The notes under the pieces: generated by a model
What the model saw: only the letters and a program-made list of their open reading frames with translations
The model's database searches: none
What the model was told of the DNA's origin: nothing
Assembly: GCA_044236665.1 (NCBI GenBank)
Contig: JBIIGF010000001.1
Location: forward strand, 1 to 61,867
Origin: Aestuariivirga sp.
GTDB lineage: Bacteria; Pseudomonadota; Alphaproteobacteria; Rhizobiales; Aestuariivirgaceae
Length of the DNA stretch: 61,867 nt
Direction: 5' to 3'
Position numbers and translations under genes: made by a program
In this document: positions 18,544-56,887 of the stretch, one piece after another
How the letters are laid out: each line of letters opens with the position of its first letter
Position numbering within the stretch: position 1 is the first letter of the stretch

Positions 18544-20865
18544 ATGCCTCTCGTTCCCGGCCTAAACCCTGCCGTACGCCTTGAACATGACCCCGAAGAC
18601 GCTGCAATCTCTGCAATGGACGTCACGGTTGAGAACACCAACGAGGACGTCGACGTCCCTCAGTTTTCGGACGACGGATCGCTTCTGAGCATCGAGCACG
18701 GCGACGGGTCGATCACCATTTCGCTGGACGGCAAGCCGATCTCCGAGAACGAGGAGGAGAAGGACACCCGCTGGTTCCGCAACCTCGTCGACGACATCGA
18801 CGATCAGGAACTGAGCATCATCTCTGAAGACCTTCTGCGGGGCATCGCCGATGACCTCGAGAGCCGCCGGGACTGGGTCGATGACCGCGCGCAGGGCATG
18901 AAGCTTCTGGGCCTCAAGATCGAGTTGCCGGGCATTCAGGGCAGCAATGACGGTGCGCCGGTCGAAGGTATGTCAAAGGTCCGGCACCCGCTCTTGCAGG
19001 AAGCCGTGCTGCGCTTCCAAGCCAACGCCCGCTCCGAGATGCTGCCGACCGACGGCCCGGTGAAGATCAGGGACGACGGCAACTCCAGCTCGGCTGAGCG
19101 CGACAACATCGCCGATGCCTTTGAGAAGGACTTCAACCACTACCTGACGTCCACCGCGACCGAGTACTACCCGGACACGGATCGCATGTTCCTCATGCTG
19201 GGCTTCGGCGGCACGGCGTTCAAGAAGGTGTACTTCTGCCCGTTGCGCAATCGCCCGGTCTCCGAGAGCGTCAACGCGGACGACCTGATCGTCAACAACG
19301 CGGCCACCGACCTGTCCAACTCGCGCCGGGTCACGCACCGCGTCTATCTCAAGCCGTCGACCGTGAAGCGCCTGCAAATCCTTGGCGTGTACCGCGACAT
19401 CGAGCTTTCGACCCCAGTGTCGCCCAGCCCGGACAGCGTTCAGGAAGCCAAAGCCTCCCAGCAGGGCGTGTCGATTGACAGCTCGAACCCGGATGACCGC
19501 GACCGCGAGATTTACGAGGTCTACTGCGAACTGGACCTCAAGGGCTTTGAGCACAAGTACAAGGGCAAGACCTCCGGTCTGGAAATCCCGTATCGCGTGA
19601 CCATCGACGTGTCGTCGCGTGAGGTGCTGAGCATCGTACGGAACTACAATGAAGAAACCGAAGTGCTGCCCGAGGCTCGCAAGACCTTCGTCAAGTACAC
19701 CTTCGTACCGGGCTTTGGCTTCTACGACATCGGCCTGTTGCACATCCTCGGTAACACCACCAACGCGGTCACCGCAGCGTGGCGCGAGCTTCTGGACGCG
19801 GGCATGTTTGCAAACTTCCCCGGCTTCCTGATCTCGGACACCGGATCGCGCCAGAACACCAACGTGTTCCGCATCCCGCCCGGCGGTGCCGCGCAGGTCA
19901 AGACGGGTGGCCAGCCCATCGGCCAAGCCATCATGCCGCTGCCCTACAAGGAGCCGTCACAGGCGCTGATGGCGCTGACCGAGAACATGGCCCAGACCGG
20001 TGCCCGCGTCGGCGGCACGTCGGAGCTGCAGGTTGGCGAGGGTCGCCCGGATGCCCCGGTCGGCACCACGCTGGCCATGATCGAGCAGGCCACCAAGGTG
20101 CTCAACTCGGTCCACAAGCGGATGCACTCGGCTCAGGCCGAGGAGTTCGCCCTCCTGCGCGATTGCTTCCGTGAGCATCCCGAGAGCTTCTGGGAGCGCA
20201 ACCGCAAGCCCACCGTCGAGTGGAACCTCGAGCTTCTGATGAGAGCCTTGGATGACGTCGAGCTGGTGCCTCAGGCCGACCCGAACACCGCCAGCCACGC
20301 CCAGCGCGTCATGAAGATCATGGCTCTGAAGCAGCTGCAGTCGGCAAGCCCCGCCCTTTACGACCCCGTGGCCGTCGACACGGCTGCCTTGCGCGCCATC
20401 GGCTGGTCGAACCCCGAGCAGTTCCTCAAGCCTGAGGGTGATCGCAACCAGCCGCCGCCGGAACTCCTCAAGGGTATCGAGGAGATCAAGATCGCCAAGC
20501 AGAAGGCCGACGCCGACACGCTGCGGGCGCAGGCTGACATGCTGAAGGCCCAGAAACCCGAGGTCGCTCGGGCGCAAGGCGGTCCGGTTGGCACCGACCC
20601 GGCTGAGCTGCAGCTGAAGATGATGGCCGAGCAGAACCGGGCCAAGCAGATCGAGCACTCGATCCGCCGTGACGCGATGAACGACGAGAACCGCGATCTG
20701 GACCGCGAGAAAGACCTGCGGACTAAGCAGATGGACTTGGACCGCGACCAGATGAACGACGCCGTTCGCATGCAGCACGAGCGCGACATGCAGGAGCGCG
20801 ACCATGCGGCTGAGGCTGTCAAGCTCGCCATGCAACTGAGGGCCCAGAAGAGAAAGGGTGACTGA
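18544..20865 (+). CDS. Portal protein (podovirus-type, long C-terminal coiled coil)
   Basis: 773 aa after terminase; 'HPLLQEAVLRFQA', 'GTAFKKVY', 'PGFGFYDIGL', 'APVGTTLAMIEQ'. Confidence 0.88.
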   Translation: MPLVPGLNPAVRLEHDPEDAAISAMDVTVENTNEDVDVPQFSDDGSLLSIEHGDGSITISLDGKPISENEEEKDTRWFRNLVDDIDDQELSIISEDLLRGIADDLESRRDWVDDRAQGMKLLGLKIELPGIQGSNDGAPVEGMSKVRHPLLQEAVLRFQANARSEMLPTDGPVKIRDDGNSSSAERDNIADAFEKDFNHYLTSTATEYYPDTDRMFLMLGFGGTAFKKVYFCPLRNRPVSESVNADDLIVNNAATDLSNSRRVTHRVYLKPSTVKRLQILGVYRDIELSTPVSPSPDSVQEAKASQQGVSIDSSNPDDRDREIYEVYCELDLKGFEHKYKGKTSGLEIPYRVTIDVSSREVLSIVRNYNEETEVLPEARKTFVKYTFVPGFGFYDIGLLHILGNTTNAVTAAWRELLDAGMFANFPGFLISDTGSRQNTNVFRIPPGGAAQVKTGGQPIGQAIMPLPYKEPSQALMALTENMAQTGARVGGTSELQVGEGRPDAPVGTTLAMIEQATKVLNSVHKRMHSAQAEEFALLRDCFREHPESFWERNRKPTVEWNLELLMRALDDVELVPQADPNTASHAQRVMKIMALKQLQSASPALYDPVAVDTAALRAIGWSNPEQFLKPEGDRNQPPPELLKGIEEIKIAKQKADADTLRAQADMLKAQKPEVARAQGGPVGTDPAELQLKMMAEQNRAKQIEHSIRRDAMNDENRDLDREKDLRTKQMDLDRDQMNDAVRMQHERDMQERDHAAEAVKLAMQLRAQKRKGD

Positions 20866-23807
20866 TGGACAAGGACAAGGCGATCCGGGCGGCAAAGCTT
20901 ACCCTCGGCGGCATGCTTGAGAAGCGCCGGGCCAAGACCGCTGTTGAGCGGGCTGAGGGCCAGATCGCCCCGTCTAAGTACCTTCCGGGCGTCCCGCGTC
21001 AGGTGCATGCCAACGGCGGCTATGTCCCAGCCGCAGCGCTGCCGGTGGGCCGCCTTGCGGTCGCCGGTGCCCTGCCGGTGCAGCGCCAGCCGGGCCTCCT
21101 TGACGCCCTCGGCAGCCTCGCCAGCATCGGCAAGTCCGCCATCGGCATCGCTGATCTGGTGTCGCCCGAGAAGGAAGAAGCGCCCAAGCCCCACGCTGGG
21201 CGCGCTGAGGCTGAAGGTGGCATGTCCCCTGAGGCCGTGTCCGCCTACAACGCCCTGCTGGAAGCCTATGGCAAGCCGCTGACCGTTGTCTCCGACTATC
21301 GCACGCCGAGCGAAAACGCCGCCGCGAAGGGTGCCAAAGGCAGCCAGCACATGCATGGCAACGCCTACGACATCGACACGTCGCATCTGTCACATGACGA
21401 GCGTCTGGCCCTCGCAGACGCAGCATGGGACGCAGGGTTTCGGGGCTTCGGCTTCTACGACAACAACATGCACTTCGACGTCGGCGGCGAGCGCGCATGG
21501 GGCCCGTCCCACAGCCGCGACAGCATCCCCGACTGGGCGCTGCCGTGGGCGCAGCAGCGGTATGGGTATGCCGAAGGCGGCGAAGTCACCGATCTGGGTC
21601 AGGTGCGCGAGCAAAAGCAGCTGCAGACGTTCCACACCGGCATGATGGACGACATCCACACCCGGATGACCCACGCCATGGAGGCGCACCAGAAGGCGGT
21701 CGACGCCGGTGTGTTCGACGGCTACGAGGTCGGCGATACCCTGCAGGGCAGCGCGCACCCCATGCGTATCACCGGACGATACATGCAGGCGTGGAAGCCC
21801 ACCACCATGGCCCTGCGCAGCTTTGAGCGGATGGGCACCGACCCAACGATCATCGAGCACGAGGGCAAACAGTACATCCCGATGCTTCGGTATCAGACCG
21901 GCAAAGAGGGTGTAGACGGGTTCCAAGAGGGAACCGCGTACCTCGACGGCGTCAGGGCCGCTGGCTACCAGAAGATGGGTGGTCTGCGGGCAGTGAAGGC
22001 TCGTGGTGGCGCTGTGGAGTTCATGCGGGGCAACCACCCGCTGGTGCCTGACGAGCTGTATCACGGTAGCGCACCGAAGGTGGCCACCAAGGGCTGGACA
22101 ACCGAGGTTGACGAAGAGCAGACCCAAAAGAACATCGAGGCGCAGGACTTCCGCGAGTTCCGTCCGTCGGAGCATGGTAACTACGGCCCCGGCATCTACC
22201 TGACCGACAAACCTGAGGTTGCCAGCGATTTCGCGCAAGGTATTCGCGCTGACCAAAAAGAACCTCGCCCGCATGGGCAGGTCATGAAGCTGCATGCCAG
22301 CATCAAGCAGCCGTTTCATGATGACGTACTGCGAAATCCGGCGTGGCGGGATTACATCAAGAGCGCCCTGACCCAATACAGCATCTCGCATGGTGAGGAT
22401 CGCAATGCGCGGGACGCCATCCTGAAGGCGCTGGACAACGGCACCGCAACCGTGCGCGATCTGTTTCTGCGCGACACGCCGCAAGGCACTTTGGTCAACC
22501 AGCATGGCCAGCACGACATCCACGACACCATTCGCAATTCCGGTTTCGATGGGATCATTGCGCACCGGCCCGACGGATCGAAAGAATATGTCGCGTTCAA
22601 GCCCGAGCAGGTGAAGAGCGCGATCTCGGCCCGAAAGTTTGACCCCACCAGCCCGGACATGACGTATGCTGACGGCGGCGCTGTCCCGCAGAAGACCGTG
22701 AAGGCCTACAAGCTGTTCCGCACCAAGGGTGACGGCAAGCTGTACCCGCTGTTCGTCAACGCCGACAAGCCCGTGCCGATGGGCGAGTGGCTTGAGGCCG
22801 AAGAGGGCCCGCAGGGCAAGGCGCAGGGCAGGGTGAAGTCCAAGATCGGCGATCTCGCATACCGACCCGGCTGGCATGCTGGCGATCTGCCCATTGCAAC
22901 CCACATCGGCGGCAAGTCCGACCCGAGCCTGAAGAAGCCCGATTACCGGCCCGACAACCACGTCTGGGCCGAGGTCGAGATGGCAGCCGACAAAGACTGG
23001 CAGTCGGTGGCCAACAGCCGTGGCAAGGGTGTGAAGGCCCACATCACCGACCAAGTACCTCTGGGTGGGTTCTATCGGTACAAGACCAACCCGAACATGA
23101 CCGGGAACTGGCTGATCGGCGGCAACATGAAGGTCAATCGTGTCCTGCCGGACGAAGAGGTCAAGGCCATCAACGACGCCGCTGGAACAGCCGACCTGCC
23201 GCGACTGCCGCGTGGCGCGTTCGCCGCTGGTGGTGCCGCCATGTTCGAGGGCATCCACGAAGACCTGCAGGACGAGCAGGGAAACCCTCTGGAACTCTGG
23301 CACGGCACACCCAGTGAGCCGTTCAGCGAGTTCAAGGACGAGAAGCTGGGATCGACCCGCGACTATGGGTTCTATGGGCGTGGGCATTACCTGACGCCGG
23401 ATCGTGAGAACGCCGAGGAGTACACGACAAACGAGTATGAGAAGCCCGGCGCAGTTATGGGCCCGCTCCACGCAGCCTTAAAGAACCCCTACGTCTGGGA
23501 TGCATCTGAGCAGGGCGCGCACCGCACACTGCGCGACCTGCAGTCCATGGGCATCATGAAGGGTCAAGACAGGCTCGAGCCATGGGACAACCTGCAGTCA
23601 CACCATATCCGCCCATTTATGGCTGAGATGCAAAAACGTGGCCATGATGGTGTTGTGGTTCGTACGAACGACTATCATGAGGGCAAGCCGCACCGCGTCT
23701 CCGAGATCGTCGTTTTCAAGCCCAGCGCGATCAAGCACAAAGACGCTGCGGTCTTCGACCCGAACGACCCAAACATCTATCGAGCCAATGGCGGAGCGAT
23801 CAAATGA
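20865..23807 (+). CDS. Polyvalent protein: M15-like peptidase, unknown module, ART-PolyVal-like domain, unknown module, second ART-PolyVal-like domain
   Basis: 'SDYRT..N...GAKGSQHMHGNAYD...HFD' (M15); two 'xHG[ST]...G[IH]YLT...G[FH]DG[IV]...E[YI]VxFKP' domains; modules separated by xAxGGx[VAI]. Confidence 0.75.
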   Translation: MDKDKAIRAAKLTLGGMLEKRRAKTAVERAEGQIAPSKYLPGVPRQVHANGGYVPAAALPVGRLAVAGALPVQRQPGLLDALGSLASIGKSAIGIADLVSPEKEEAPKPHAGRAEAEGGMSPEAVSAYNALLEAYGKPLTVVSDYRTPSENAAAKGAKGSQHMHGNAYDIDTSHLSHDERLALADAAWDAGFRGFGFYDNNMHFDVGGERAWGPSHSRDSIPDWALPWAQQRYGYAEGGEVTDLGQVREQKQLQTFHTGMMDDIHTRMTHAMEAHQKAVDAGVFDGYEVGDTLQGSAHPMRITGRYMQAWKPTTMALRSFERMGTDPTIIEHEGKQYIPMLRYQTGKEGVDGFQEGTAYLDGVRAAGYQKMGGLRAVKARGGAVEFMRGNHPLVPDELYHGSAPKVATKGWTTEVDEEQTQKNIEAQDFREFRPSEHGNYGPGIYLTDKPEVASDFAQGIRADQKEPRPHGQVMKLHASIKQPFHDDVLRNPAWRDYIKSALTQYSISHGEDRNARDAILKALDNGTATVRDLFLRDTPQGTLVNQHGQHDIHDTIRNSGFDGIIAHRPDGSKEYVAFKPEQVKSAISARKFDPTSPDMTYADGGAVPQKTVKAYKLFRTKGDGKLYPLFVNADKPVPMGEWLEAEEGPQGKAQGRVKSKIGDLAYRPGWHAGDLPIATHIGGKSDPSLKKPDYRPDNHVWAEVEMAADKDWQSVANSRGKGVKAHITDQVPLGGFYRYKTNPNMTGNWLIGGNMKVNRVLPDEEVKAINDAAGTADLPRLPRGAFAAGGAAMFEGIHEDLQDEQGNPLELWHGTPSEPFSEFKDEKLGSTRDYGFYGRGHYLTPDRENAEEYTTNEYEKPGAVMGPLHAALKNPYVWDASEQGAHRTLRDLQSMGIMKGQDRLEPWDNLQSHHIRPFMAEMQKRGHDGVVVRTNDYHEGKPHRVSEIVVFKPSAIKHKDAAVFDPNDPNIYRANGGAIK

Positions 23808-25471
23808 ACAAGCACGGCCTCTATTCCAAAGCCGCTGAGATCATCCGCTCCCTGCCGCAGGAGAGGGGCACGGTCGATCAGTACATCGCCGCAGCCAAGG
23901 CCCGTGGCGCGAAGCCGTCCGAACTGGAGCATGCCGGACGCCCCGAGGGTGACAAGATCACCCGCGAGGCGCTGGCCAAGCACTTTGAAGACGCCATCCC
24001 GAACCTTGGCGTCTCCCAGTACGGCGAGAACCCCCGCTACACGACCAACGAGGAAAACAAGCGGTTCCGTGACATTCCAGCCGGAGCAGAACTGTCTCCG
24101 CAGGAGAAGCTTGAGTACAACCGCCACATTCAGCGGAGCACGAGCAGACCCGAAGCTGAAACCTCACAATATGAAGGCGACGAAGACTATTTTGACACAG
24201 CCGACACGCAATATGGGGCCTACACAATCCCCGGCGGGAAGGACTATCGCGAACGCCTGATCCGGCTGGAAAGACCCAAAGGCTCCAATGAGCCGAGCTT
24301 TCGTTCATCCCACTGGTCCGATCATCCGAACGTGCTGGCCCACATCCGTATGTCCGACCGTATGGTTGGCGAGGATCGCGAAACTGTGCGGCCCATCGCT
24401 CAAAAGCTGGCAGATCATTTTAAGGTTGGGATCAGAGACCTCGGATCGTACGCCGCAGATCAGGGCGTCAAAGACGGCGTGGTTTCTCCGAAAGAGGCGG
24501 CCTCGTTTGCGCGGGTCATGAACTTCCCGTTCAGCAAGTACCACTCGGCTCCGGGTATCGGAAAACGCCTGTTACACGTCGAGGAGCTGCAGTCCGACTG
24601 GGGCCAAGATGGGCGCGATCAGGGGTTCAATACTGGAGAGGCGACAAAGGCCTATCAAGACCACACCCAAGGTGTAAAAGACCGTTTCCGCCAAAAGCTG
24701 TCGTGGATGGGGGACGATGCCGCCATTGAGAAAAGGATGGCGGAGACCCCTGTCAGCGAAATGGCCGCCCACACCGGCGATCTGGACCGGCATAGGGAGC
24801 TTGGCAAGGCCGCCGCCGACGAGCGTGGCAAGGCACCAACCGCCCCTTACGTCCAGAACACCCAGCACTGGACCGATCTTGCGCTGAAGAACGTCCTGCG
24901 CGAGGCCGCACTGGGCAACTATGACGGCGTGGTCTTTACCCCCGGACAGGCGCAGGCCGACCGCTACGGGCTGGAGAAGCAGCTTGATAAACTGCAGTAT
25001 GTGCCAAGCCAAAAAGAGCTTCGCGGCTTCAAGGATGGCACTTCGGTCGTGCACAAGGTGGGTATTGCACCAGAAGACCTACCGGGCCTGATTGGCAAGG
25101 ACGCAACTGGCAAGATGCTTCACCCCGACAACACGTTCACAGCCTCGGGCGAGCACACCTCAGTTAATGCAGGCGATCAGTACCACATGCTTCAGGGCGA
25201 CGACCTGAAAATGGGCGGCGAGGGCATGAAGGGTTATTACGACAACATCGTGCCGAAGAGCGTGATGACCTTGGCCAAACAGCACGACCCGGCGGCCAAG
25301 CCCGGCGAACCAATCACGCTCAAAAGCGATGATGGCGACTATCAGGGCTTCCACCTGCCGATGACTGACACCCTGAAGAACAGCGTCCTCGACAAGGGCT
25401 TCCCAGCCTTCAAGCGGGGCGGTTCGGTCGACGCAGCCCTCTCCCTGACCAGACGCTTCACCAAGCGGTGA
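23804..25471 (+). CDS. Large polyvalent-protein-type domain, probable internal virion protein
   Basis: 'PGGKDYRE', 'SHW..PNVLAHIR..DR', 'LHVEELQSDW', 'LALKNVLREAA..YDGV'; C-terminal FKRGGSV. Confidence 0.65.
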   Translation: MNKHGLYSKAAEIIRSLPQERGTVDQYIAAAKARGAKPSELEHAGRPEGDKITREALAKHFEDAIPNLGVSQYGENPRYTTNEENKRFRDIPAGAELSPQEKLEYNRHIQRSTSRPEAETSQYEGDEDYFDTADTQYGAYTIPGGKDYRERLIRLERPKGSNEPSFRSSHWSDHPNVLAHIRMSDRMVGEDRETVRPIAQKLADHFKVGIRDLGSYAADQGVKDGVVSPKEAASFARVMNFPFSKYHSAPGIGKRLLHVEELQSDWGQDGRDQGFNTGEATKAYQDHTQGVKDRFRQKLSWMGDDAAIEKRMAETPVSEMAAHTGDLDRHRELGKAAADERGKAPTAPYVQNTQHWTDLALKNVLREAALGNYDGVVFTPGQAQADRYGLEKQLDKLQYVPSQKELRGFKDGTSVVHKVGIAPEDLPGLIGKDATGKMLHPDNTFTASGEHTSVNAGDQYHMLQGDDLKMGGEGMKGYYDNIVPKSVMTLAKQHDPAAKPGEPITLKSDDGDYQGFHLPMTDTLKNSVLDKGFPAFKRGGSVDAALSLTRRFTKR

Positions 25472-25511
25472 TGATCTGATATGCTCCCCGGCAACGTACA
25501 GGGGGCCATCT

Positions 25512-28286
25512 ATGTCTGATGCCGTAAAGCGCGCACTCGATCTTGTCTCCGGGTATCAAGACCCGGAGCACCCCAAGATGAAGGACTGGAACTGGAAGCC
25601 CCTGCGCGACGTGCAGGAGAAGCTGGGCGGCCTCCCCGAAATCCCGAGCCACGTCGAGCGCTTTGGTGCCTTCATGGATGAGACGGCGCAGCGGGCGCTC
25701 AAAGGCGGCCTGACCCCGCGCGACCTCATCAAGGCCTATGCAATCACCCGTTCGTCGATCCAGCGCCGCGCCCAGACCGCAGACAAGGTCCGCGCCGCCG
25801 GTCTGGACCTCCCACCGGGCATGACGGGCATGATCCGCCCCGAGGGTGCCATGGGCGAGTGGTTGCACAGCCCCATGGGGCAGCGCTATCTCGACCAAGC
25901 AGAGCGCGGGAAGGTCGACGAAGAGGCTGTCGCCAATGCCCAGCAGGTCATGAAGCCGTTTGGCCTGAACGCGGAGCTGGATGCCTTGCCTTGGGCCGTC
26001 CAAAACCTCGGCCCGCGCCACAAAGAGGTCTCCGATCTGGTCGCTCGGGCCCTCACCGGCCAGTCTTCGCCCGAGGAATGGCGCAATTTCTCCAAGGATA
26101 TGCGTGGAATTGGCACGGCGAAGGCTGGTTTTGTCGCTTCCATGCTTGGTCGAGGCGATCAGCCGACCTTGGACGCCCGTCAGGTCATCCTGCAGACCGG
26201 TCAGCCGACGTCCGAGGCCAAAAAACCCATGGCGAAGGCCGGATATGCGGCTGTTGACCGCCTCGCAGCCCGTCAGGCGGCCTTAAATCCCAAAATGGAC
26301 CCCGGTTTAGAGCCTTTTCGGCAGCATTTGACCCACCACGCCATCTGGGACAAGGCCGGGAACGAGGAAACCACTCACGATGACGTCATGCGGGCCATGC
26401 GGGGCGCAAAAGACGGCGGTCGGATCAAGTATGACCGTAGCAAACACATCGAAAGTATCCGAAATCACCCTCTGGGCGCAGCATTGTTGCGCGTTGCGGG
26501 TATCGACCCCAAGCACAGCGACGAGCAGGTGCAGGCGATCCTGCAAAGGATCGAAGCCCGCAACAAAATGGTCGTCAACCCCAATGAAATCTGGAAGATC
26601 AACGACCCAATCGAGAAAGCGCGTCAGATCGCACTGTTGCAGAAGTACGATACCGATGTTTCTCAGAACAAGCCGACGACCGGCGGGTACTACAACATCA
26701 AGCAGGCCATGGCTCCAAGGGATGTGACGTCAACCGTCGGCGACATTCCGGGCGTGACGCCGAAGCCGATCAACAAGCTGTCTTGGGAGGACACACTGGC
26801 CCCCAGAGCCGGTGGTACGCTGATTGGCCTCGGCGGGGACCGCTCCAGACTGGGCCGGATGACGCACATCAACGGCAAGGAGCTGAAGTGGCCGGTCGAC
26901 CTTCACGCCGGTGTCGATTACATGCGCGAACCCAATAAGGGTCAGGTGTGGGCGAACGCCAAGGCCCACGCCAAGGGCATTGAGAAGATGATTGCGACCG
27001 CCGCCGAGAAGGGGCCGATCCTTGGGGCGTTCCAGCCTATGGGGCCCCAGTCCGTGGACAGCTCGCACAACATGGCGGACGCGCTGATGGCCCAGATCGA
27101 CAGCGATCAGATTAGCCCCGCCGACGCCAAAGAATTTGATGATGCACTGCGCGCAGGCTTGCATTCCCCCAACAAGAAAGAGCGCGAGGCGCATGCCCGT
27201 CAGATGGAGAACTGGCCCGGCATCCTGAACGCCAAGGAGGCCAGCGATTTCATGCGGCCTGAAACTGGCTTCCCCGGCACTGGCCGGGCGGCGCTCGCAA
27301 AATTCATGGACAAGAGCTATTGGCGTGACCGTGGCTTCCCGCATGTGGGTCAGACGCGCGCCGCCATCACTGAGCCTGAGCTTCTGGACGCTCGCGGCAA
27401 CATGGTTGGGCACAGAACTGTCGAGCTTGACCCTGAAGAAATGATCCGCAACGTACGAAACAGCGGCTTCATCCACTCGACGTACACCGAGCCGACCGGC
27501 GGCAGATATGTCTCCGACGTCCCACTTCTGCCGCGCCCGGACGTGTTCAGCGAACACGAGACGGCGATGCTGGCAAAGAACATCAGCGGCGGCCACACCG
27601 TCCACCCGTACGCCCCGACAAACCTTGGCCGTGCGACGTACCGCAAGATGACCGAGGAGCAAAAGCCTTGGGGAACGATCAACCAAGAAATGATCGACCG
27701 GGCGGGGATCGCAGAAGAGCGCATGAAACGGTATGGCTACAACACCGGCGGCACGGTGATGCCCGATCCGACCGAGGCCCAGAAGAAGGCGGGCAACTAC
27801 CTCAAGGGGCACATTAGCTTCCAAGGCCTGCCGATCACCCTCGAGAGCATGAAGGGTCAGACGCGGTCAGGCGTAGACCCAAATGGACAGAAGTGGTCAG
27901 TCAAGCTCCCGTACAACTACGGCTACATCAAGCGCACCGAGGGTGCGGATGGTGACCACGTTGACGTCTGCATTGGCCCGGACAGCGAGAGCGACCACGT
28001 CTTCATCATCGACCAGCACGATCTGCGCACCGGCGACTTTGATGAGCACAAGGTCATGCTGGGGTATCGGACCCGCGAGGACGCCACAAAGGCGTACCGT
28101 GACGGCTTTTCCGACGGCAAGGGGGCAGATCGGCAGCGCGCCGTGGTCCGCATGTCGATGAAGGAATTCAAGCACTGGCTGAAGTCGTGCGACACGAAAA
28201 AGCCTGTTCGGGGTCAGGGGCACATCGACCGTGCAATGTCTCTCACTTCGCGCTATACTGCACGGCACGACCGGGACGCCGGATAA
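25512..28286 (+). CDS. Polyvalent protein: HhH-like N-terminal domain, unknown middle domain, C-terminal inorganic pyrophosphatase (InPase) domain
   Basis: '[14 protein letters not shown]...G.TRSG....KWSV...[17 protein letters not shown]...FDEHKVMLG'; N-terminal '[10 protein letters not shown]...PTLD'. Confidence 0.75.
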
Positions 28287-28302: not shown

Positions 28303-29523
28303 ATGGACGCCAAAACTCTGCGCGCAGCGATGAAGGACAAGGCCAAACGCCTTGCGACCTCCTCGCCTGCCAAGGTCGACAGCTCGACCTTTACCCCTGC
28401 CGAACCGCTTAATACCGAAGTCAAGACGGGCATGCGCCCGATCTCGCGCCGCGCATTCAAGACCGGCGGCAAGGTTGAGGGCATGGAATGCGCGCCCCGC
28501 GCTGACCGCAAGCCCCGCATGAACGGCGGCAAGATCGGTCTGGCCAACACCGACCAGAAGAGCGCCAACGAGGAGCGCGACGGCAAGAAGCACGTCGGCG
28601 CACTCAAGACCGGCGGTCGCGTTGCCAAGATGGGTGGCGGCCTGATGGACCCCAAGAAGGGTGAGGGCATGATGAAGTCCTCTTTGGACCATTACGAGCC
28701 CCTGCCAAAGCCCGATGGCAACCCCTTCAAACCCGGCAAAGACCAAATCGACAAGGGCAACGCGCTCATGCAAGAAGAGCAGCGTCGTCAGGGCGACATG
28801 ACCCGCCGCAAGCATGGTGGCAAGACAATGAAGGCCTCTGGTGGGTCGATTTCGTCCGCCGGTCCTGACACTGGTGGCCGTGAAGCCAAGAAGAAGGGCG
28901 GCATGGTCGAGGGTTCGGCCAAGGACGTGGCTGAAGACAAGAAGCTGGCCAAGAAGCACGGCATGTCCATGAAGGAGTGGGAAGCCTCGCCTGAGGACAA
29001 GAAGCATGACGCGCCGAAAAAGAAGTCCGGCGGCGGTCTCTACGCCAACATCCACGCCAAGCGCGAGCGGATCGAGGAAGGCTCGAAGGAGAAGATGCGC
29101 AAGCCGGGCTCCAAGGGCGCTCCGACTGCTGAGGCGTTCAAAGCCTCTGAGCGCACCGCTCGCAAGTCTGGTGGCAAGGTTGGCAAGACCAACATCAACA
29201 TCATCATCTCGCCGCGCGGTGAAGCCAAGGAAGGCATGATGCCTCCCCAGCCGATGCCGATGCCGCGTCCTCCGATGCCGATGCCTGCCGCTGCAGCCGC
29301 TCCTCCGATGCCGATGCCCGCCCCCGGCGGTATGCCTCCGGGTCTCGGCGCAGCTCTGGCCGGTGCCGCTGGCGCTATGCCTCCGGGTGGCGCAATGGCT
29401 GGCCGTCCGCCGATGCCGATGGCTCGCAAGGATGGCGGCAAGGTGTACCCGAAGATGAAGTACGGCGCTGGCTCCGGCGAGGGCCGCCTTGAGAAAGTTG
29501 AGAAGTACGGCAAAAACGCCTGA
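28303..29523 (+). CDS. Lys/Gly/Met/Pro-rich disordered protein with ~10 xxxGGx motifs (candidate internal head polyprotein)
   Basis: GAGGAG RBS before ATG 28303; strongly biased codons; followed by a terminator hairpin. Confidence 0.75.
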
Positions 29524-29803: not shown

Positions 29804-30193
29804 ATGCCGCACATGATGATGAGCCACGAGGAAGACCCCAAAAACAAGCTCCTCGATGAGCTGGGCGACCTCTCCGAGATTGAACTGTTCCACAACCAAG
29901 TCCTTCTGGCGGTCTATATCCGCCCGCAGAAGACAAAGTCCGGCCTCTACCTGACGGACAAGCACACCGATGAGGACCGCTACCAGTCGAAGGTCGGCCT
30001 CCTCGTGAAGACCGGCCCACAGGCGTTCGAGCAGGACGGCAACTGGTTCTCCGGCCTCGATTTCAAAGACCACGATTGGCTGGTTTTCCGCCCGTCTGAC
30101 GGCTGGTCGATCACCGTCAACGGTGTTCTCTGCCGCATCTTCGACGACATCAACATCAGGGGCCGAATTCCGCACCCCGACGCAGTCTGGTAA
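29804..30193 (+). CDS. GroES-like (Cpn10) co-chaperonin
   Basis: 'NQVLLAV..PQKTKSGLYL...VGLLVKTGPQAF...DWLVF...RIFDDINIRG'. Confidence 0.8.
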   Translation: MPHMMMSHEEDPKNKLLDELGDLSEIELFHNQVLLAVYIRPQKTKSGLYLTDKHTDEDRYQSKVGLLVKTGPQAFEQDGNWFSGLDFKDHDWLVFRPSDGWSITVNGVLCRIFDDINIRGRIPHPDAVW

Positions 30194-49587: not shown

Positions 49588-50169
49588 ATGCCGCTGAAGC
49601 CCGGAAGCTCGCAGGAGACTATCTCCAAAAACATCTCCGAGATGGTCCGCTCTGGTCATCCGCAGGATCAGGCTGTTGCGGCGGCCTTGAGCACGGCTCG
49701 CGAGGGCATGAAGCGCGGTGGCGGGATCAAAACGCACAAGGGCCCAATCCACTCCGCAGTGGCTGGACGAACCGATCACCTGCCAATGCACGTTGCCTCT
49801 GGATCGTACGTTATCCCGGCTGACATCATCTCGGCCATGGGTGAGGGCAACTCGATGGCCGGGTTCAAGGTGGCAAAGAGCATCTTTTCCATGGCAGGGC
49901 CGTACGACAAGAGCGTGGGTGCCATGCCATATGGCGGCGGTGAGATGCCCTATGACCAGCCTGCACCCAAGCGCGCTGCCGGTGGTGAGGTTGACGCTGT
50001 GCCAATCGTTGCGGCTGGCGGAGAGTACGTTATCCCGCCCGAAGACGTCGAGCGCATCGGCAACGGCGACTTGGATCATGGGCACAAAGTCCTTGATGCC
50101 TTTGTGAAAAAAATGCGAAAAAAGACCATCAGAACCCTGCAATCACTGCCGGGACCCAAAAAGGACTAA
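49588..50169 (+). CDS. Protein with two GG...G[SE]YVIP units resembling tape-measure C-terminal motifs
   Basis: AAGGA RBS then ATG 49588; 'KRGGG...[18 protein letters not shown]' and '[23 protein letters not shown]'. Confidence 0.7.
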
Positions 50170-50173
50170 ACTG

Positions 50174-50668
50174 ATGGATGACGTCGCGGTTCGCACTGGC
50201 ACAATTGAAGACTTTAACGCGATGATGGACTGGGCATTTTCTGCCACTCAGGAAAATGCATTTGTTTATCCCGACGTCGAAAAACTTGCCGGTGTTATTT
50301 GGGGCGCATTGTCGGTCAAGACGGGGATTTGCGGGATCATAGGGCCGGTTGGCGGCAAGGTTGAAGGGGCAGTCCTTCTCAGCATGGGCGAACTGTGGTA
50401 CAGCAAAGAAATAATTCTTGAGGAAAAAGTGATCTACGTTGACCCTGAATACCGCTCGGCGAAGGGTGGTAGGGCAAGAAAGCTCGCTGAATTCGCGAAG
50501 ATGACTGCAGACAAGCTCGGTGTTCCGTTGGCGATTGGTGTTCTTTCAAGTTCTCGGACGGAAGCAAAAATTCGGCTTTATGAGCGTGTATTTGGCTCAC
50601 CAGCTGGTGTATACTTCCTCTACGGTGCAAAAACTGGCCTCAATGAAGGGGCTGAAGGGGGCTCCTAA
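50174..50668 (+). CDS. GNAT-fold acetyltransferase-like protein
   Basis: 'VRTGTIEDF', 'IYVDPEYRSAKGGRARKL', 'IRLYER..G'. Confidence 0.65.
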   Translation: MDDVAVRTGTIEDFNAMMDWAFSATQENAFVYPDVEKLAGVIWGALSVKTGICGIIGPVGGKVEGAVLLSMGELWYSKEIILEEKVIYVDPEYRSAKGGRARKLAEFAKMTADKLGVPLAIGVLSSSRTEAKIRLYERVFGSPAGVYFLYGAKTGLNEGAEGGS

Positions 50669-53600
50669 TGGGCGGCAAAACTTCAACAACGACACAGCAG
50701 GTTACTGTCCCGCCGGAGGTTCTTGCCCGGTACAACGCGGTCAATGCGCGTGCTGAAAGTGTTGCAAACAGGCCATTCCAGATTTACTCCACGGACCCAT
50801 CCAAGTTCGTTGCGCAGCTGAACCAGCAGCAGCAGATGGGTATTGGGAATGTGAACGCCGCCGCAGGGGCTTACCAGCCGTACCTATCGGGTGCCACGGG
50901 AGCAACCATGGCCGGTATGGCGTCGGCCAACCCCGCTGATCTTGAGATCAGCAAATACATGAACCCGTTCCAGCAGGACGTCATCAACGCTACGATGGCT
51001 CGCATGCGTCAGGAACAGGAGCAGGCCCAGTCTGGCGCTCTCGGCACCGCCATCTCCTCTGGGGCCTTCGGCGGCGACCGGGCCGGTATTGCGGCTGCAA
51101 ACCTTGCCCAACAGCAGGGCATGGCGACCGGCGCGACCTTGGCTGGCCTGAACGCGCAGAACTATCAGCAGGCCCTGCAGACGGCCCAGCAACAGCAGGG
51201 CCTCGGTCTCGGCGCAGAACAAGCAAACCTTGCCCGCCTCCTCTCCGGTGGCCAGCAACTGGCAGGCCTTGGGCAGATGGCTCAGGGTCTTGGGCTTCAG
51301 GGTGCAGAGGCGCAGATCAACGCGGGCACCCTCGGTCAGCAGACCGAGCAGGCTGGCCTCAGCGCGCTTTACAATCAGTTCCAGCAGGAGCAGGCCTATC
51401 CGTTCCAAGTGGCCCAGTTCCTTGCGAACATCGCGGCCAGTACCGGGGCGTTGTCTGGATCGACCACGACCACCACACAGCCCGGCTCGTTCTGGTCGGA
51501 TCGCCGCCTGAAGCACGACATCAAGCGCATCGGCAAGACTGACGATGGCCTGCCGATCTACAGCTTCAAGTACAAGGGTGATGACAGCGAGCAGACCCAC
51601 GTCGGTTTCATGGCCGACGAGGTCGAGAAGGTTAATCCTGACGCGGTGAACACCGAACCGTCCGGCTACAAGTCGGTCGACTATGACCGAGCAACCAAGG
51701 CCGGTGGCGGTGGTGTTGCTGGTCCGTATGGCTCAAACGTTGGTTCTCAGCCGGGCGTCGGTGGCTATGTCCCGCAGGCCTACCTACCTGTCGGTGAGTT
51801 GATGATCGCTGACAGCTCTGGTCTCTCAAATGCGCGCATGTCTATGGCACAGCAACTTGAGGCCGCAGCCAAAATAGGCGAGAGCATCAAAAGCCTAGAC
51901 GAGGACTGGCAGTGGGCCAAGGATCGTTGGGGCAACCAAAAACGCGAGGGGAACCTTGCTGGTGCCGAGGAGGCGCGCGACGTAAGATATGCCTCTGGTG
52001 GCGTCGTCGGCTATGCTTCTGGTGGCCCAGCCTACCTTGAGGGCGGCCTCAAGCCCGCCCAGAACCCCGTTGAAAAGGAGGGCTACCTCTCCGACACGGT
52101 GAAGTCCCAAGAGGAAGGCAAGAAGAACCAGATCATGCAGCCGGGCTCCGCGCCGGGCCAGCAGGCAAGTGGCGCGTCCCAGCTTGGAAGCCTTTTGGGC
52201 GGCGCTGGTGCAGCAATGTCTGGTTTTGCAGCCATCGCTCCGCTCCTCGGCATCTCCGACCGCCGCATGAAGCACGACATCCGCAGGATCGGGAAAACCG
52301 ACGACGGGATGCCGATCTACAAGTTCAAGTACAAGGGTGACGACCGCGAACAGACGCACATCGGCTTCATGGCTGATGAGGTCGAGCGCAAGCATCCCGA
52401 CGCCGTGATGACCGGCTCTGACGGCATGAAGCGCGTTGACTACGGTCAGGCGGACAAGTTTTATCAGGGTGGTGTCGTTCGCCACGGGTATGCTACCGAT
52501 GGTACGGTTGAGGACGAAAGAACCGCTGGTGAGAGGGTTTCGGAGTTCACCTATCCCGCTCGCGATCTCCTGACGCGCCGACTGCCCTTGGGTGCGCTCG
52601 CCCTTGCTAACCGTATCACGGCGGGTGCCCAGAACCTAGCTGGGGTGGGCCTTGGTGCGGCTGGCGCGCCGGAAGCTGCCGATTACGCCTTCGGCGCAGG
52701 CTCTAACACGATGGAACGCGCCAGAGAGTTAAGCCGCAGAGCCGACGAACCCGCCCAGCCTTACCCCCAGCCGAGAGACCTGTCGGCGGCTGACATGCGC
52801 GCCTTGGAGCAGACCCCCGAAGAGGCGGCGGCTCTGGAAGCGCGCAGGAACATGACGATGGAGCCATCTCGGTCTGAGGGTGTTATACCCTCAGAATATG
52901 GACGCCTCTTGATGAACCCGGCGGGGTCTCTCCCTGTAGGGGTTGCCGACCCCATGCGCTTCGCCGCCGGTGATGCAAGAATGGGTGCCGAGGCATCCCC
53001 CATGCGTTTTGCCGCCGGTGATGCAAGAATGGGTGCGGAAGCCAGCCCCATGCGCTTCGCATCTGGTGATAGCCGCATGGGCCCCGGACTTGCACCCGCA
53101 TCGTCTATTCGTCCTCAGGCGCGCCCTGAAGGCCTTGGCGCTGCCTCCACCTCCATCTCTACCGCATCCCAGCCCGACGTGGCCGCTACGCAGCCCCCAG
53201 CAGCACCACAGCAGTTTGGCTTCACTGGTGTCGCCGGTGCCGGGAAAGGGTACACCGACGTCATCCTGCCCGACGGAACCGTGGAGCGTCGTGAGGGTGC
53301 GCGGAACTGGCGCAACAACAACCCCGGCAATATCGAGTTTGGTGATTTTGCCAAGGCCAATGGTGCTGTTGGTTCCGATGGGCGTTTTGCCGTGTTCCCC
53401 ACCTACGAGGCGGGCCGGGCGGCCAAGGAAGCCCTTCTGTTCTCGACCGACGGTTATGCCGGAAAGACCATTGCTGGCGCTCTTGAGCGGTACGCTCCGC
53501 GCGCAGACAACAACAATACTGACGCATACATCGCCACGGTGGCCAGCGCCCTTGGCGTCGACCCGAATACTCCGCTTGCGGAATTGAGCCCCGCTCAGCG

Positions 53601-55044
53601 GGACGCAATGCTGACGGCGATGGAGCGTGTTGAGGGCGGTGGTCCGGGCGGTGATGGCCAGTTTGTTTCCTACTCCACAACTCCCGGCGGCCTTGGCGGT
53701 GCAAGCTTGGCTCCTCCGGCAGATCAGAGAGGCCTTGGCGCTGGCATCCTGACCTCTGACAAGCCGTATGAGGATCGCACCACCCTCGGAAAGATGTTCT
53801 ACAACGAGGACGGGACGGTCAACCGCAACGCCTTGCTCTCTCTCGCATCCGGCGTTGGGGCTATGCTTTCGTCGCCCAGCCAGTTCTTCCTGCCGTCTGT
53901 AGGCCTCGGCCTGCAGGGCGCTGCCAGCACCTACGCTGGCCTTGAGAAGCAAGCGGCTGACATCGCGCTCACCAGAGAAGAAGCGCGCCGCACCAATATC
54001 GAGGCTGATAGAGGTCGCATCTACGAAGGCCAGAACGGCACGATGTTTATCAATCTAGGTGGCGGAATGCCCCCGATTGAACTCTGGCGCTATCTGGAGA
54101 ACCCCGCCGCCTATTCAACCGGCGACAGACAGCTTGATGCGCAAATCCTTCGCCAAGCACGGGAAATGTCGCAACGCGAGACGCCTGCCAGCGGTGTCTT
54201 CTCGGCCCCCGAGGTCCAGACCCTGCTTGACCGCGAAACTGCAAACTCGGAACGCAATCCGAATTCGGCCCGCGCCCAAAGCGATGCTATTGAAAGCGCA
54301 ACGAACGCTTCAGCGGCAGTGGCGCGTTCCGCAATTCCGTCAATCTTGACGCAGGCAGATGCTGTTGCCGCATTGACCAGTCCGGATGAGGAGGTGCGCT
54401 CCGGCGCATTGGGTCCGCTGAAGCAAACCGCCGCAAACTACTTGAACGACCTGTCTCAGACAATCAGCCAGATGACAGGTGTTCAGCTGCCGACCATCAC
54501 TGACCCCAACGGTGGTGACGCCGCCGCAAACGCGCAAATCATCCTCAAAGAGGCTGTAGCTTCTGGTATGCTGAACGCCAACGGCATCCAAGAGCTTCAG
54601 ACCATCATGGGTGCACAGCCGAACATGGCGCTCTCTGCCGAGGCAAACTCCGCGCTGATGGCAGGTCTGTTGGTATCGGGTCGCACCGAAATGCGCCGCG
54701 CTGACTTCATGCGGGACTACAAGCAACAACCGGGCAACACATACCGCACGGTGATTGACGCTGGTCAGGCTTTCCAAGAGGCATACGGCAATCAGATTTT
54801 GGCCGAAAAGGCTGTTCTGAAGGAACTGATTCACTACGGAAATCAACCCATGCCTCCCGAGTGGGCCACCATCCTTGGCGACTACAGGACGCCCATGGAA
54901 TTCCTCATGACGCCCGGCATCTCGCCGGAAGACAAGAACGAGTTCATCATGAAACTTCTCCCGGCACTTGGGGTAAACGAGATGGTCATCTCGGGTCTTC
55001 AGGGTCCGGAAGGCGTTTACATCGGCAACTACTTCGGAGGCTGA
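50668..55044 (+). CDS. Large ejection / DNA-transfer protein with two internal S74 chaperone domains and a lysozyme-like domain
   Basis: Gln/Ala/Gly-rich N-terminus ('MGGKTSTTTQ', 'YMNPFQ', 'GAFGGDR'); two 'SDRR[LM]KHDI.RIG' domains; 'RNNNPGNI...FAVF.T.EAG...RYAP..DNNNTDAY'. Confidence 0.75.
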   Translation: MGGKTSTTTQQVTVPPEVLARYNAVNARAESVANRPFQIYSTDPSKFVAQLNQQQQMGIGNVNAAAGAYQPYLSGATGATMAGMASANPADLEISKYMNPFQQDVINATMARMRQEQEQAQSGALGTAISSGAFGGDRAGIAAANLAQQQGMATGATLAGLNAQNYQQALQTAQQQQGLGLGAEQANLARLLSGGQQLAGLGQMAQGLGLQGAEAQINAGTLGQQTEQAGLSALYNQFQQEQAYPFQVAQFLANIAASTGALSGSTTTTTQPGSFWSDRRLKHDIKRIGKTDDGLPIYSFKYKGDDSEQTHVGFMADEVEKVNPDAVNTEPSGYKSVDYDRATKAGGGGVAGPYGSNVGSQPGVGGYVPQAYLPVGELMIADSSGLSNARMSMAQQLEAAAKIGESIKSLDEDWQWAKDRWGNQKREGNLAGAEEARDVRYASGGVVGYASGGPAYLEGGLKPAQNPVEKEGYLSDTVKSQEEGKKNQIMQPGSAPGQQASGASQLGSLLGGAGAAMSGFAAIAPLLGISDRRMKHDIRRIGKTDDGMPIYKFKYKGDDREQTHIGFMADEVERKHPDAVMTGSDGMKRVDYGQADKFYQGGVVRHGYATDGTVEDERTAGERVSEFTYPARDLLTRRLPLGALALANRITAGAQNLAGVGLGAAGAPEAADYAFGAGSNTMERARELSRRADEPAQPYPQPRDLSAADMRALEQTPEEAAALEARRNMTMEPSRSEGVIPSEYGRLLMNPAGSLPVGVADPMRFAAGDARMGAEASPMRFAAGDARMGAEASPMRFASGDSRMGPGLAPASSIRPQARPEGLGAASTSISTASQPDVAATQPPAAPQQFGFTGVAGAGKGYTDVILPDGTVERREGARNWRNNNPGNIEFGDFAKANGAVGSDGRFAVFPTYEAGRAAKEALLFSTDGYAGKTIAGALERYAPRADNNNTDAYIATVASALGVDPNTPLAELSPAQRDAMLTAMERVEGGGPGGDGQFVSYSTTPGGLGGASLAPPADQRGLGAGILTSDKPYEDRTTLGKMFYNEDGTVNRNALLSLASGVGAMLSSPSQFFLPSVGLGLQGAASTYAGLEKQAADIALTREEARRTNIEADRGRIYEGQNGTMFINLGGGMPPIELWRYLENPAAYSTGDRQLDAQILRQAREMSQRETPASGVFSAPEVQTLLDRETANSERNPNSARAQSDAIESATNASAAVARSAIPSILTQADAVAALTSPDEEVRSGALGPLKQTAANYLNDLSQTISQMTGVQLPTITDPNGGDAAANAQIILKEAVASGMLNANGIQELQTIMGAQPNMALSAEANSALMAGLLVSGRTEMRRADFMRDYKQQPGNTYRTVIDAGQAFQEAYGNQILAEKAVLKELIHYGNQPMPPEWATILGDYRTPMEFLMTPGISPEDKNEFIMKLLPALGVNEMVISGLQGPEGVYIGNYFGG
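52951..53085 (+). repeat. In-frame 48-bp tandem repeat, ~3 copies (PMRFAAGDARMGAEAS)
   Basis: Visible directly in both DNA and protein. Confidence 0.9.
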
Positions 55045-55045
55045 C

Positions 55046-56887
55046 ATGGAAGACCTTACCAGTAGACTTCCCACACTTCAGCCTCCCGCCGGGCGCTCAC
55101 CTCAGGCTAGCATGTCGGAGCGGGTCAAAAGCCTCCCTGCTCTGACATTGCCACGTCAAGAGGAGCGACCAGAGCAAGCGCAGACGGTTACCCCCGGTGA
55201 CCGTCAACCCCCCGGCGGTGATAATCGCATGACCCCCGTCCCCGCCCCCGCCTCTGGGCGCATGTTCCAGATCAAGGAAGACCTCCCGCGAAGCGCGTAT
55301 GAAGACATGCCGTTTACGGAAGTTTTGCCTCGTGCGGCCTCCAACTTCTTTCCCAGCGCCGGGAACGTGGGTAAGGGTCTGTATGACGCCGTGGTGAATT
55401 ATGAGGACACGGCAGGAGCTCTAAACCAACTTGGCAAGGGCGTCATCTCAAAGGTTCGCGGCGCTCTGGGTGGTGAGCGCAACATGGAAGCCGAGGCGGT
55501 AGCTGACGCGCTGGGTTCTATGTATGCTGACCGCTATGGCAGCATGGCGGCCTTCAAAGAGACTTTGGCTGAAGACCCCGCCTCTATTGGCTTAGATGTG
55601 GCGTCTGTTGCCCCTGTGGTCGGACCAGCAGGTCGCGCTGCGGGCCTTGGGCCTGTGGCAACAGGCCTGCAGAGGGTTACCTCTCTTGGTGACCCGGTCA
55701 ACCTTGCTGCTCAGGGTGTAAAGCTTGCTTCCCGTGGTGTCACGGCCCCGGTGACCACGGTTGGCAGATACGTTCAGGGTGCAGCAAGCGGGGTCACGCC
55801 GAACGCCCTGAAGCTTGCCGAGCAGGCTGGCAAGAGTGCCGATCCTGCGGCACGAGCCGCGTTCAAGACATTTGCTATGGGCAAGGGCGACAACCGGGAA
55901 ATTGCAAGAACCGCCGTGGCGGCTCTGGATGAACGCCGCGCCGCCGAACAAGCTGCCTATGTGCGGGGCAAGCGGGAGCTGACCACTCAGGAACTGTCCC
56001 TGAATAGGGTGCAGGATACCGTCAATCAGGTTAGGTCCGAGATAAATAGGCTCGGCCTCTCAAGCCAATCCCCGAAGGTTGCCGTTCTTGAGGAAATGGC
56101 GAGGAAGGTTGACCAATACGTCAATCACCCCGACCCCACGGCCCGAACGGCTGTTCAGCTGGACGTTCTGAAGCGCGATCTGCGTGATATGATGGACACT
56201 CTGAAGCCGTCTGACAAGGGTGCTTTGTCATCCATACCCACGTCTGTGCGCGACACCATTGCAACTGTCGATCCGGGTTACGCTGCTATGATGGAGCGGT
56301 ATCAGTCGTGGCTGTCCGAGATGAAGGACATCCAATCGACTCTTGGTGCCAACGACCGTGTAGCAGAGACGACACGGATTGCACGGCTTTTGTCCACCCT
56401 GAAGAGCGACGACAAGACATCGCTCCTGAAGGAGTTGGCCGGGAAAACAGAAGCCGGGAAGTACCTTCCTTACATGATTGCCGGTGCCTCGGTTGAAAAG
56501 ATAGCGCCACCCTACCTGCAGGGTATGGGCCTGATGGGGGCTGGGTCTGTCCTTCTGGGTGGTCCACATGGTATGGCAATGGCGGCAGCTGGATCACCTC
56601 GTCTTGCTGGGTTTACCCAATATGGGGCAGGGCGTCTGCAGGGTGCGATCAACAGAATCCCAACACCCCCTTCTGCAGCAACCAACCTTCTGTCCCAGAT
56701 CGGGAATGAACGTATGGAGCGCAAGACCGGTGGCCGTGTGGGCATGCCGCACGACAAGGTGGCAGATCAGTTGGTTATGGCTGCAGAACGTGCTAAGAAG
56801 GGGATCAGCAAGGGGACCGAAAGCCTCCTCGATATGTCTGACAACCACATCGCACATGCTTTGGAAGTGGCGAACAGGAGCATCTGA
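55046..56887 (+). CDS. Second ejection / DNA-transfer protein
   Basis: Helical Ala/Gly-rich 613 aa after the large ejection protein; hydrophobic 'GAGSVLLGG..AAAGSPRLAG'; C-terminal RKTGGRV. Confidence 0.65.
   Translation: MEDLTSRLPTLQPPAGRSPQASMSERVKSLPALTLPRQEERPEQAQTVTPGDRQPPGGDNRMTPVPAPASGRMFQIKEDLPRSAYEDMPFTEVLPRAASNFFPSAGNVGKGLYDAVVNYEDTAGALNQLGKGVISKVRGALGGERNMEAEAVADALGSMYADRYGSMAAFKETLAEDPASIGLDVASVAPVVGPAGRAAGLGPVATGLQRVTSLGDPVNLAAQGVKLASRGVTAPVTTVGRYVQGAASGVTPNALKLAEQAGKSADPAARAAFKTFAMGKGDNREIARTAVAALDERRAAEQAAYVRGKRELTTQELSLNRVQDTVNQVRSEINRLGLSSQSPKVAVLEEMARKVDQYVNHPDPTARTAVQLDVLKRDLRDMMDTLKPSDKGALSSIPTSVRDTIATVDPGYAAMMERYQSWLSEMKDIQSTLGANDRVAETTRIARLLSTLKSDDKTSLLKELAGKTEAGKYLPYMIAGASVEKIAPPYLQGMGLMGAGSVLLGGPHGMAMAAAGSPRLAGFTQYGAGRLQGAINRIPTPPSAATNLLSQIGNERMERKTGGRVGMPHDKVADQLVMAAERAKKGISKGTESLLDMSDNHIAHALEVANRSI

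Follow-up and report, generated by a model that had tools for sequence, protein, structure and literature searches.

A Gly-Gly peptide recurring at module joints of predicted cargo proteins in a short-tailed phage, and a candidate partner domain shared with tape measure proteins

The window analyzed here comprises a complete contig (JBIIGF010000001.1; 61,867 bases) from a short-tailed phage. It was binned within a 2.6-Mb prokaryotic genome assembly, and no exact terminal repeat was found at the lengths tried (20–127 bases). Pfam and PHROG scans revealed genes for an SU10-type portal, a terminase, a GroES-like protein, a capsid protein, two adaptors, a nozzle, and ejection-type proteins. Annotated phage records contained 18 relatives of the portal, with HTVC023P/027P, CRP-901, and Caulobacter phage RW among them, at approximately 30% identity. 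An earlier note on this stretch had described a peptide centered on Gly-Gly (GG) that recurs at domain boundaries of seven putative virion-internal proteins, and had proposed it to be a cleavage site or a packaging or ejection tag. We analyzed this motif and the seven genes, which are termed gA (20865), gB (23804), gC (25512), gD (28303), gE (49588), gF (50668), and gG (55046). These genes and the other features listed in the next two paragraphs are all on the plus strand.

The portal gene (18544..20865) is followed by gA (20865..23807), which encodes a likely polyvalent cargo protein of 980 amino acid residues (aa) with six GG motifs at residues 51, 238, 381, 604, 789, and 976: HANGGYV (21006), YAEGGEV (21567), KARGGAV (21996), YADGGAV (22665), FAAGGAA (23220), and RANGGAI (23781), respectively. 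From its N-terminus, gA contains a helix tag (20874–20906), an M15 peptidase (21225–21473), a module without assignment, ART-like module 1 (approximately 22047–22640), a phrog_30118 module (22698–23204), and ART-PolyVal module 2 (23271–23738). In both ART-like modules, His, Tyr, and Glu were seen by eye at the expected places of the H-Y-E triad. gB (23804..25471) encodes a cargo-cluster protein of 555 aa without a family match, in which FKRGGSV (25409) is followed by the C-terminal helix tag VDAALSL (25427–25456). gC (25512..28286; 924 aa) consists of two modules without assignment and a pyrophosphatase (InPase, 27774–28184); its motifs are AKDGGRI (26406) and YNTGGTV (27738), and it has helix tags at both ends, VKRALDL at approximately 25521 (25521–25547) and IDRAMSL at approximately 28221 (28221–28250). 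gD (28303..29523; 406 aa) is basic (81 Lys and Arg versus 45 Asp and Glu), rich in Pro and Met, and contains approximately 10 motifs; it is likely a disordered inner-core protein. The position before the GroES-like gene is held by a motif-rich gene in most long related loci.

The remaining three genes lie farther downstream. gE (49588..50169; 193 aa), the candidate socket protein discussed below, comprises an N-terminal helix hairpin matching phrog_2423 (49588–49716) and two copies of a GG..D..GE[FY]V domain, copy 1 (49729–49890) with an invariant Asp63 and copy 2 (49972–50121) with an invariant GG and Glu146. A GNAT-family gene (50174..50668), in whose relatives the motif was not enriched (2 in 12,363 aa), separates gE from the ejection genes. 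gF (50668..55044) encodes an ejection-type protein of 1,458 aa with two S74 chaperone domains (51496–51675 and 52255–52434) and a lysozyme-like module (53290–53646). The first S74 domain is followed by motifs at 51694, 51988, and 52012, and the second by a motif at 52459 and the variant YATDGTV at 52489. S74 domains are self-cleaving; here they lie inside an ejection-type protein and not a tail fiber, and their activity, if present, would yield three pieces of gF independently of the GG motif. In gG (55046..56887; 613 aa), RKTGGRV (56720) opens a conserved C-terminal segment of approximately 50 aa that ends in the helix tag IAHALEV (approximately 56846–56878).

The nine peptides given above for gA, gB, and gC were all found where the earlier note had placed them, and the peptides it had listed without a position were located at 49708, 49972, 51694, 51988, 52012, 52459, and 56720. 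For counting, we used the strict pattern [YFMKRH][AKQNE]xGGx[VIA], which was derived from this window. The ten copies reported for gD were recovered under a looser pattern, and five sites under the strict one. In the seven genes, the strict pattern occurred 19 times in 5,129 aa; 1,000 shuffled sets gave a mean of 0.9 and a maximum of 6, and shuffling with the GG pairs kept gave a mean of 1.8 and a maximum of 6. The 42 other genes of the window contained a single match in 11,959 aa (RAQGGPV at 20569–20589, in the tail of the portal). These shuffles rule out chance and glycine content as the source of the motif. The form GGx[V/I] used in the title of the earlier note did not hold as a definition and was dropped as non-specific, with 22 matches in the seven genes and 19 in the others versus 12.6 after shuffling, which indicates that the residues upstream of the GG carry the signal.

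Because the strict pattern was fitted on the window, it was tested on a held-out set of 160 related loci, which are partly redundant. The portal-to-GroES cluster contained 402 strict motifs in 96,758 aa (4.15 per 1,000), and the orthologues of gE, gF, and gG contained 5.18, 1.47, and 1.11 per 1,000 aa, respectively. The portal (6 in 58,707 aa; 0.10 per 1,000), the nozzle (8 in 55,422 aa; 0.14 per 1,000), and the upstream genes (0.19 per 1,000) were poor in the motif, and none was found in the adaptor (17,795 aa), scaffold (6,439 aa), or capsid (3,035 aa). The cargo cluster of the relatives was thus 30–40 times denser in the motif than the portal or nozzle genes.

Conservation of the motif mainly at the protein level was borne out, as codons differ between copies. 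Positions with the same residue used the same codon in 49% of 5,899 pairs versus 40% expected from codon use; this sharing is too low for a pure DNA repeat, with an excess that is not zero. The sequence is constrained on both sides of the GG. Of 428 instances, 19 had Pro after the GG (0.7 times background); Asp took the place of the first Gly in 16 of 184; and spacings of 10 residues or less between motifs accounted for 43 of 401. Five of 94 cluster proteins, several of them homologous, ended 2–3 residues past the GG. A ubiquitin-like exposed C-terminal GG was rejected, as none of the 94 ended at the GG itself, and a terminal GG in gF was not general among 33 relatives.

The location of the motif relative to modules was examined by counting the ends of internal homology that fall within 12 residues of a motif, compared with 2,000 random placements. 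In gA, 63 of 80 homology ends lay near a motif (13% expected), and no random placement was as high; 105 of 343, 7 of 22, and 12 of 24 ends lay near a motif in gF, gC, and gG, for which 6, 85, and 62 of the 2,000 random placements were as high, respectively. The placement at module edges claimed earlier therefore holds for gA, gC, gF, and gG and fails for gB, where none of 64 homology ends fell near the single motif. ART-like module 1 was flanked by motifs in 7/7 relatives, and ART module 2 had a motif upstream in 11/13 and downstream in 11/13; a motif lay 69–98 residues past the start of the S74 domain in 64 of 71 cases; and YNTGGTV (27738) stands before InPase (from 27774). When the ten joints of the window were compared with relatives, 51 shared the upstream module alone, 21 the downstream module alone, and 13 both, the GG itself being required by the test. 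Module swaps break at the GG: at joints sharing only the upstream module, identity was 0.37 one residue past the GG and ≤0.16 from three residues on, except for one position with 0.27. In gC of the window, a second, tandem copy has decayed.

ART-PolyVal (PF18760) in gA and InPase (PF18823) in gC scored above their curated cut-offs. Polyvalent effector domains occur in both, and gA carries several in one chain, an M15 peptidase and two ART-PolyVal stretches. The mosaic cargo genes lie between the portal and the GroES/scaffold genes, and their modules swap among relatives. The earlier description of these as putative virion-internal proteins with interchangeable effector domains is supported, and they are likely polyvalent cargo; they resemble the polyvalent proteins of Iyer et al. 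(2017; PMC5512222) as mosaic strings of effector domains in a virion gene context. The cargo may be packaged in the head and injected, as hinted at indirectly by PHROG hits in the minor head, DarB-like, and DNA ejection families. In the portions of PMC5512222 available to us, the processors named are zincin metallopeptidases and a Gly-Gly joint does not appear; the seven genes gave no match to such a peptidase.

A second recurrent element was found at the protein termini. In 43 of 94 cluster proteins, a helix with the pattern [VIL]x[RKHQE]A[LMIV]x[LIVMAT] lay no more than 35 residues from an end, as it did at 21 of 24 C-terminal ends of gG. By comparison, the pattern, which was fitted on these same data, hit 1–2% of internal stretches and none of 66 portals. 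In the other four lineage samples it was rare, except for 13 N-terminal and 6 C-terminal ends of 682 in one of them. The helix is similar to helix 2 of the phrog_2423 hairpin. This terminal tag, which the earlier note had overlooked, may be the true prohead-targeting or packaging signal.

The GG motif also opens a domain of approximately 50 residues with the consensus GG..D-[ST]-[IV]-P-A..G-E-[FY]-V. A profile was built from 129 viral loci outside the window, which were collected with the pattern D-[ST]-[IV]-P-A-x-L-[ST]-x-G-E-[FY]-V. Among 58 proteins, two scored below E = 0.5, lambda gpH (E = 3e-8) and gE (E = 1.5e-5); profile-profile comparison of gE with the domain by hhalign gave a probability of 86.8%. 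Among PDB sequences, the profile matched the tape measures of lambda (E = 1e-4), JBD30 (E = 2e-9), and Douge (E = 5e-26). The domain occupies residues ~733–790 of lambda gpH (in gpHC, at the end of TIGR01541), 1014–1069 of JBD30 gp46, and 959–1028 and 1409–1471 of Douge gp16, and is not resolved in the cited structures. The link to the C-terminal region of lambda gpH, which the earlier note had drawn, is thereby borne out. By profile, the C-proximal domain of these tape measures is the same and is opened by the same motif; here, in contrast, a doubled stand-alone domain occurs in a short-tailed phage, and the motif is spread over six other genes.

A mixed profile retrieved 45,667 protein clusters at E ≤ 0.001. 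The best 150 of these were proteins of 1,000–7,900 aa (up to 7,872 aa) with 3–11 domain copies and many free motifs, and tape-measure families were found in six of the nine that were scanned. In the best 150 hits, a motif lay within 25 residues upstream of 489 of the 533 domain cores, and 959 of the 1,340 motifs were free-standing. Asp was present in 531 and Glu in all 533 of these cores; neither residue was fixed in the pattern, and the proteins were chosen by a profile rewarding both.

Among 91 domain members, no Pfam match better than E = 0.05 was obtained. A HINT half-domain, an idea that came from a resemblance in spacing, was rejected: no HINT family appeared among the Pfam hits of these members, no Cys was conserved, and no score was obtained with the start of an intein from a related terminase. 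The corresponding stretch of JBD30 gp46 is predicted to fold as two helices with a short hairpin, called a "hook" (PMC11445458). Our model of a single domain had a predicted local distance difference test (pLDDT) score of 79; it contained two helices but lacked strands, and its best Z was 2.8. Since one copy is modeled confidently without paired strands, the model suggests that a single copy may need a partner. No fold or protease family was matched, with low Z scores that exclude no fold.

The earlier note had left the partner of the motif open; the window does encode a candidate, gE, with its two copies of the domain opened by the motif. Homologues of gE numbered 3,246. In copy 1, Asp was present in 251/251 and the Glu site was always Ser or Ala (251/251), and its own strand carries xG, not GG; in copy 2, Glu was present in 251/251 and GG in 250/252, with Asp in only 117/252. 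Instead of each copy having both Asp and Glu, the two form a divergent, complementary pair. Domain-bearing genes also precede the ejection-type genes in HTVC023P, HTVC027P, 023Pt_psg01, RW, DSL-LC04, and MW202545, the last with two copies, as an intermediate form, and, as judged by eye, in Pag-Yong1. The model of gE had a mean pLDDT of 58.9; its best Foldseek match in the PDB was at E = 1.3, which excludes no fold, BFVD gave only uncharacterized phage proteins at E ≤ 0.001, and the best VIA match (Z 5.8) was on the N-terminal hairpin. The phrog_2423 hairpin is also found at the N-terminus of a phage AB1 protein annotated as head maturation protease. Acinetobacter phages carry it as a fusion with annotated head proteases, in Burkholderia phages it coincides in part with genes annotated as Nudix, and in many other phages it has matches among short hypothetical genes; it is a candidate for a general head-targeting module.

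The distribution of the domain and the motif was compared across lineages with whole-record searches using profile A6, a preceding profile (A4) having recovered one of nine expected positives. The domain was found in 8/9 window-clade and 4/4 Pag-Yong-like long records and in 0/12 CRP-901-like records, and one weak 22-residue hit was obtained in 21 others; some records are incomplete. Strict motifs numbered 68 versus 19.7 after shuffling in Pag-Yong-like loci, and 4 versus 22, 8 versus 15, and 26 versus 28 in domain-negative sets. Among 11 annotated records, several of them covered in part, the four domain-negative ones had 0–1 motifs and the domain-positive ones 2–15. That the sampled lineages without the domain show no motif enrichment is weakly suggestive, as it represents one or two independent events.

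The motif is positioned at module edges, swaps break at the GG, and the same peptide opens a domain in tape measures and gE orthologues. On this basis, we favor, with a probability of roughly 0.4, an uncut plug-and-socket tether for injected cargo, in which the motif is a plug that binds the gE domain pair. The socket would consist of two paired domain copies, a homodimer in single-copy orthologues and a fused pair in gE, with one Asp and one Glu at the center of the pair. gE, encoded ahead of the ejection genes, would be held near the portal; cargo modules bearing one or more plugs would be tethered there and would exit with the ejection proteins. gD, with its ten plugs, would cross-link the inner core, and the terminal helix tags would bring the proteins into the prohead. 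A peptide at the edge of every cassette would allow cassettes to be exchanged without loss of the tether. The two-sided constraint around the GG, the tolerance of Pro after it, the replacement of Gly by Asp, the tight spacings, and the motifs near C-terminal ends all favor a motif that is not cut.

A parallel is offered by the cargo protein C1 of crAss001 (gp45; PF25725; PMC10172136), which has GG peptides at, for example, residues 263, 373, 427, 562, and 828. According to the portions of that paper at hand, which do not mention a GG motif, a C-proximal domain of gp45 beginning at one GG peptide docks on the portal, and the portal-bound fragment is modeled from residue 425, starting with AFGG. 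This may favor an uncut motif; several of the gp45 peptides have an aromatic residue directly before the GG, unlike those here. Assignment of gE to crAss_CARG1 (PF25725) was rejected, since 0 of 70 gE homologues matched at E = 5 (gp45 control, 2.6e-68). The models showed no confident beta core; their best Z scores, 2.8 and 5.8, were to unrelated chains and exclude no fold. An Atlas score of 0.82 between the domain and crAss C1 is a lead only.

Several points weigh against the tether. Homology of the domain to crAss C1 is unsupported by hhalign (0.3% and 0.6%), the near-invariant Asp and Glu would fit a catalytic site equally well, and approximately 25 plugs face a single socket gene. The domain-positive phages RW, Pag-Yong1, and HTVC023P are not significantly rich in the motif (2, 2, and 4 strict matches, respectively). 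Counts with a DNA pattern were 3–8 in the window clade, 0–3 in Pag-Yong-like records, and 0–2 in 33 others, the latter two groups not being separated. On a quick capsid tree of 47 rows, in which six window-clade rows were labeled domain-positive by clade alone, the label changed twice, and one origin is possible. A stand-alone InPase, the only one of the 94 cluster proteins without even a loose motif (a pattern that also hits 53 of the 94 when shuffled), keeps its helix tag, so that the motif fits a role in separating joints better than one as a packaging tag. The literature search yielded no virion proteome for this clade.

Cleavage at the motif, taken over all its versions, is a close rival to the tether, although we regard it with some doubt. 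In its likelier form, the paired domain would be a protease cutting near the GG at a composite acid site, to which copy 1 contributes Asp and copy 2 contributes Glu. Such an undescribed, minimal Asp/Glu protease would split both tape measures and podophage cargo polyproteins, with gE as its trans-acting, head-targeted form; it would free the enzyme modules, strip the helix tags, degrade gD as a T4 core protein is degraded, and mature lambda gpH. We consider this rather unlikely. It would account for the conservation of Asp and Glu in nearly all of the 533 cores and for their invariant split between the gE copies, for the hairpin that gE shares with an annotated head protease, and for the absence of the motif from an InPase that has no joint. 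Lambda gpH is cut near the domain, and the accessible part of PMC12617516 reports neither the site nor the enzyme; however, the gel masses of gpH* (~78 kDa) and gpHC (~14 kDa) fit a cut at ~710–721 better than one at FATGG 737 (80.1/12.2 kDa), and the canonical Asp position is not occupied by Asp in lambda. The layout, with terminal tags and a basic protein carrying many sites, also parallels that of T4, in which, according to the available text of PMC9026906, a peptide code is shared across unrelated internal proteins, and gp21 both trims propeptides off the termini and cleaves core proteins at multiple positions. The T4 enzyme, however, is a serine prohead protease that cuts after L/I-x-E, including in the capsid protein, whereas here the capsid and scaffold of the relatives are free of the motif and no such protease was found: none was recognized among 46 proteins in Pfam and PHROGs or 14 in NCBIfam, in line with the earlier note. 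In addition, the domain has only ~50 residues and matches no protease family or fold (low Z), Pro after the GG is barely depleted, and the JBD30 authors, in the portion of PMC11445458 seen, report no peptidase motif in this stretch.

Less likely still is a motif without any reader, which would act as a hinge, flexible or self-associating, that arose by copying of the domain's end; it would let modules unfold for passage through the tail, and its GGYGGY DNA would serve as a recombination joint. The breaks at the GG, the modest excess of codon sharing (0.49 versus 0.40), and the decayed tandem copy in gC are in line with it, as are domain-positive phages with few motifs, and an origin by copying would also produce co-occurrence with the domain. 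A plain hinge, however, does not need an aromatic or basic residue three before the GG and Val or Ile two after it, half of the same-residue positions use different codons, and motifs persist at places without a junction of modules, namely at protein ends and tenfold in gD.

Proteases of adenovirus and African swine fever virus (ASFV), SUMO proteases, and bacteriocin-leader proteases cleave at Gly-Gly. Cleavage by some other enzyme (a host protease, an SprT-like metallopeptidase, or an unrecognized head protein), with gE as another substrate, would have this precedent and an HExxH gene in the window, but is highly improbable, since that gene lies in an early, opposite-strand region, the scans found no prohead protease family, and the presence of the domain in motif-rich lineages would be left unexplained. 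Metallopeptidases as processors of polyvalent proteins have been proposed by Iyer et al., as seen in the accessible portions of PMC5512222. The SprT-like gene (1929–2618, minus strand) encodes the HExxH motif together with a C-terminal Cys cluster.

Polyvalent cargo proteins (PMC5512222, as far as available) and T4 peptide codes for head cargo are already known. The literature search found no description of the motif or of a function for the domain, most subscription papers being outside its coverage, and the parts of PMC10713586 and PMC13033339 that were available contain nothing on either. The loading and ejection of interchangeable effectors by podophages are poorly known, and one pair of peptide and domain links podophage cargo with the cleavage of lambda gpH and with approximately 45,000 protein clusters that have no Pfam model. 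Whether it proves to be a socket or a protease, a very common phage domain would gain a name, and module boundaries in the cargo of uncultured phages could be read by a rule. If the domain were a protease, one system would split tape measures, including lambda gpH, and podophage cargo into injected modules.

Other genes of the head region were also surveyed. A gene between the scaffold and capsid genes (31068–31598) is conserved in motif-rich and motif-poor lineages; it had no family match, and as an Atlas search returned only unnamed clusters, it was set aside as a protease candidate. In two relatives, L022 (18664–19095) and L025 (13695–14102), a small His/Lys-rich gene with 3–5 GG motifs follows the capsid genes, and the window has no clear motif-bearing equivalent. 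An HNH/endonuclease VII gene (33890–34549) is inserted directly 3′ of the major capsid gene, and the GroES-like co-chaperonin gene (29804–30193) is kept in the head cluster across the clade.

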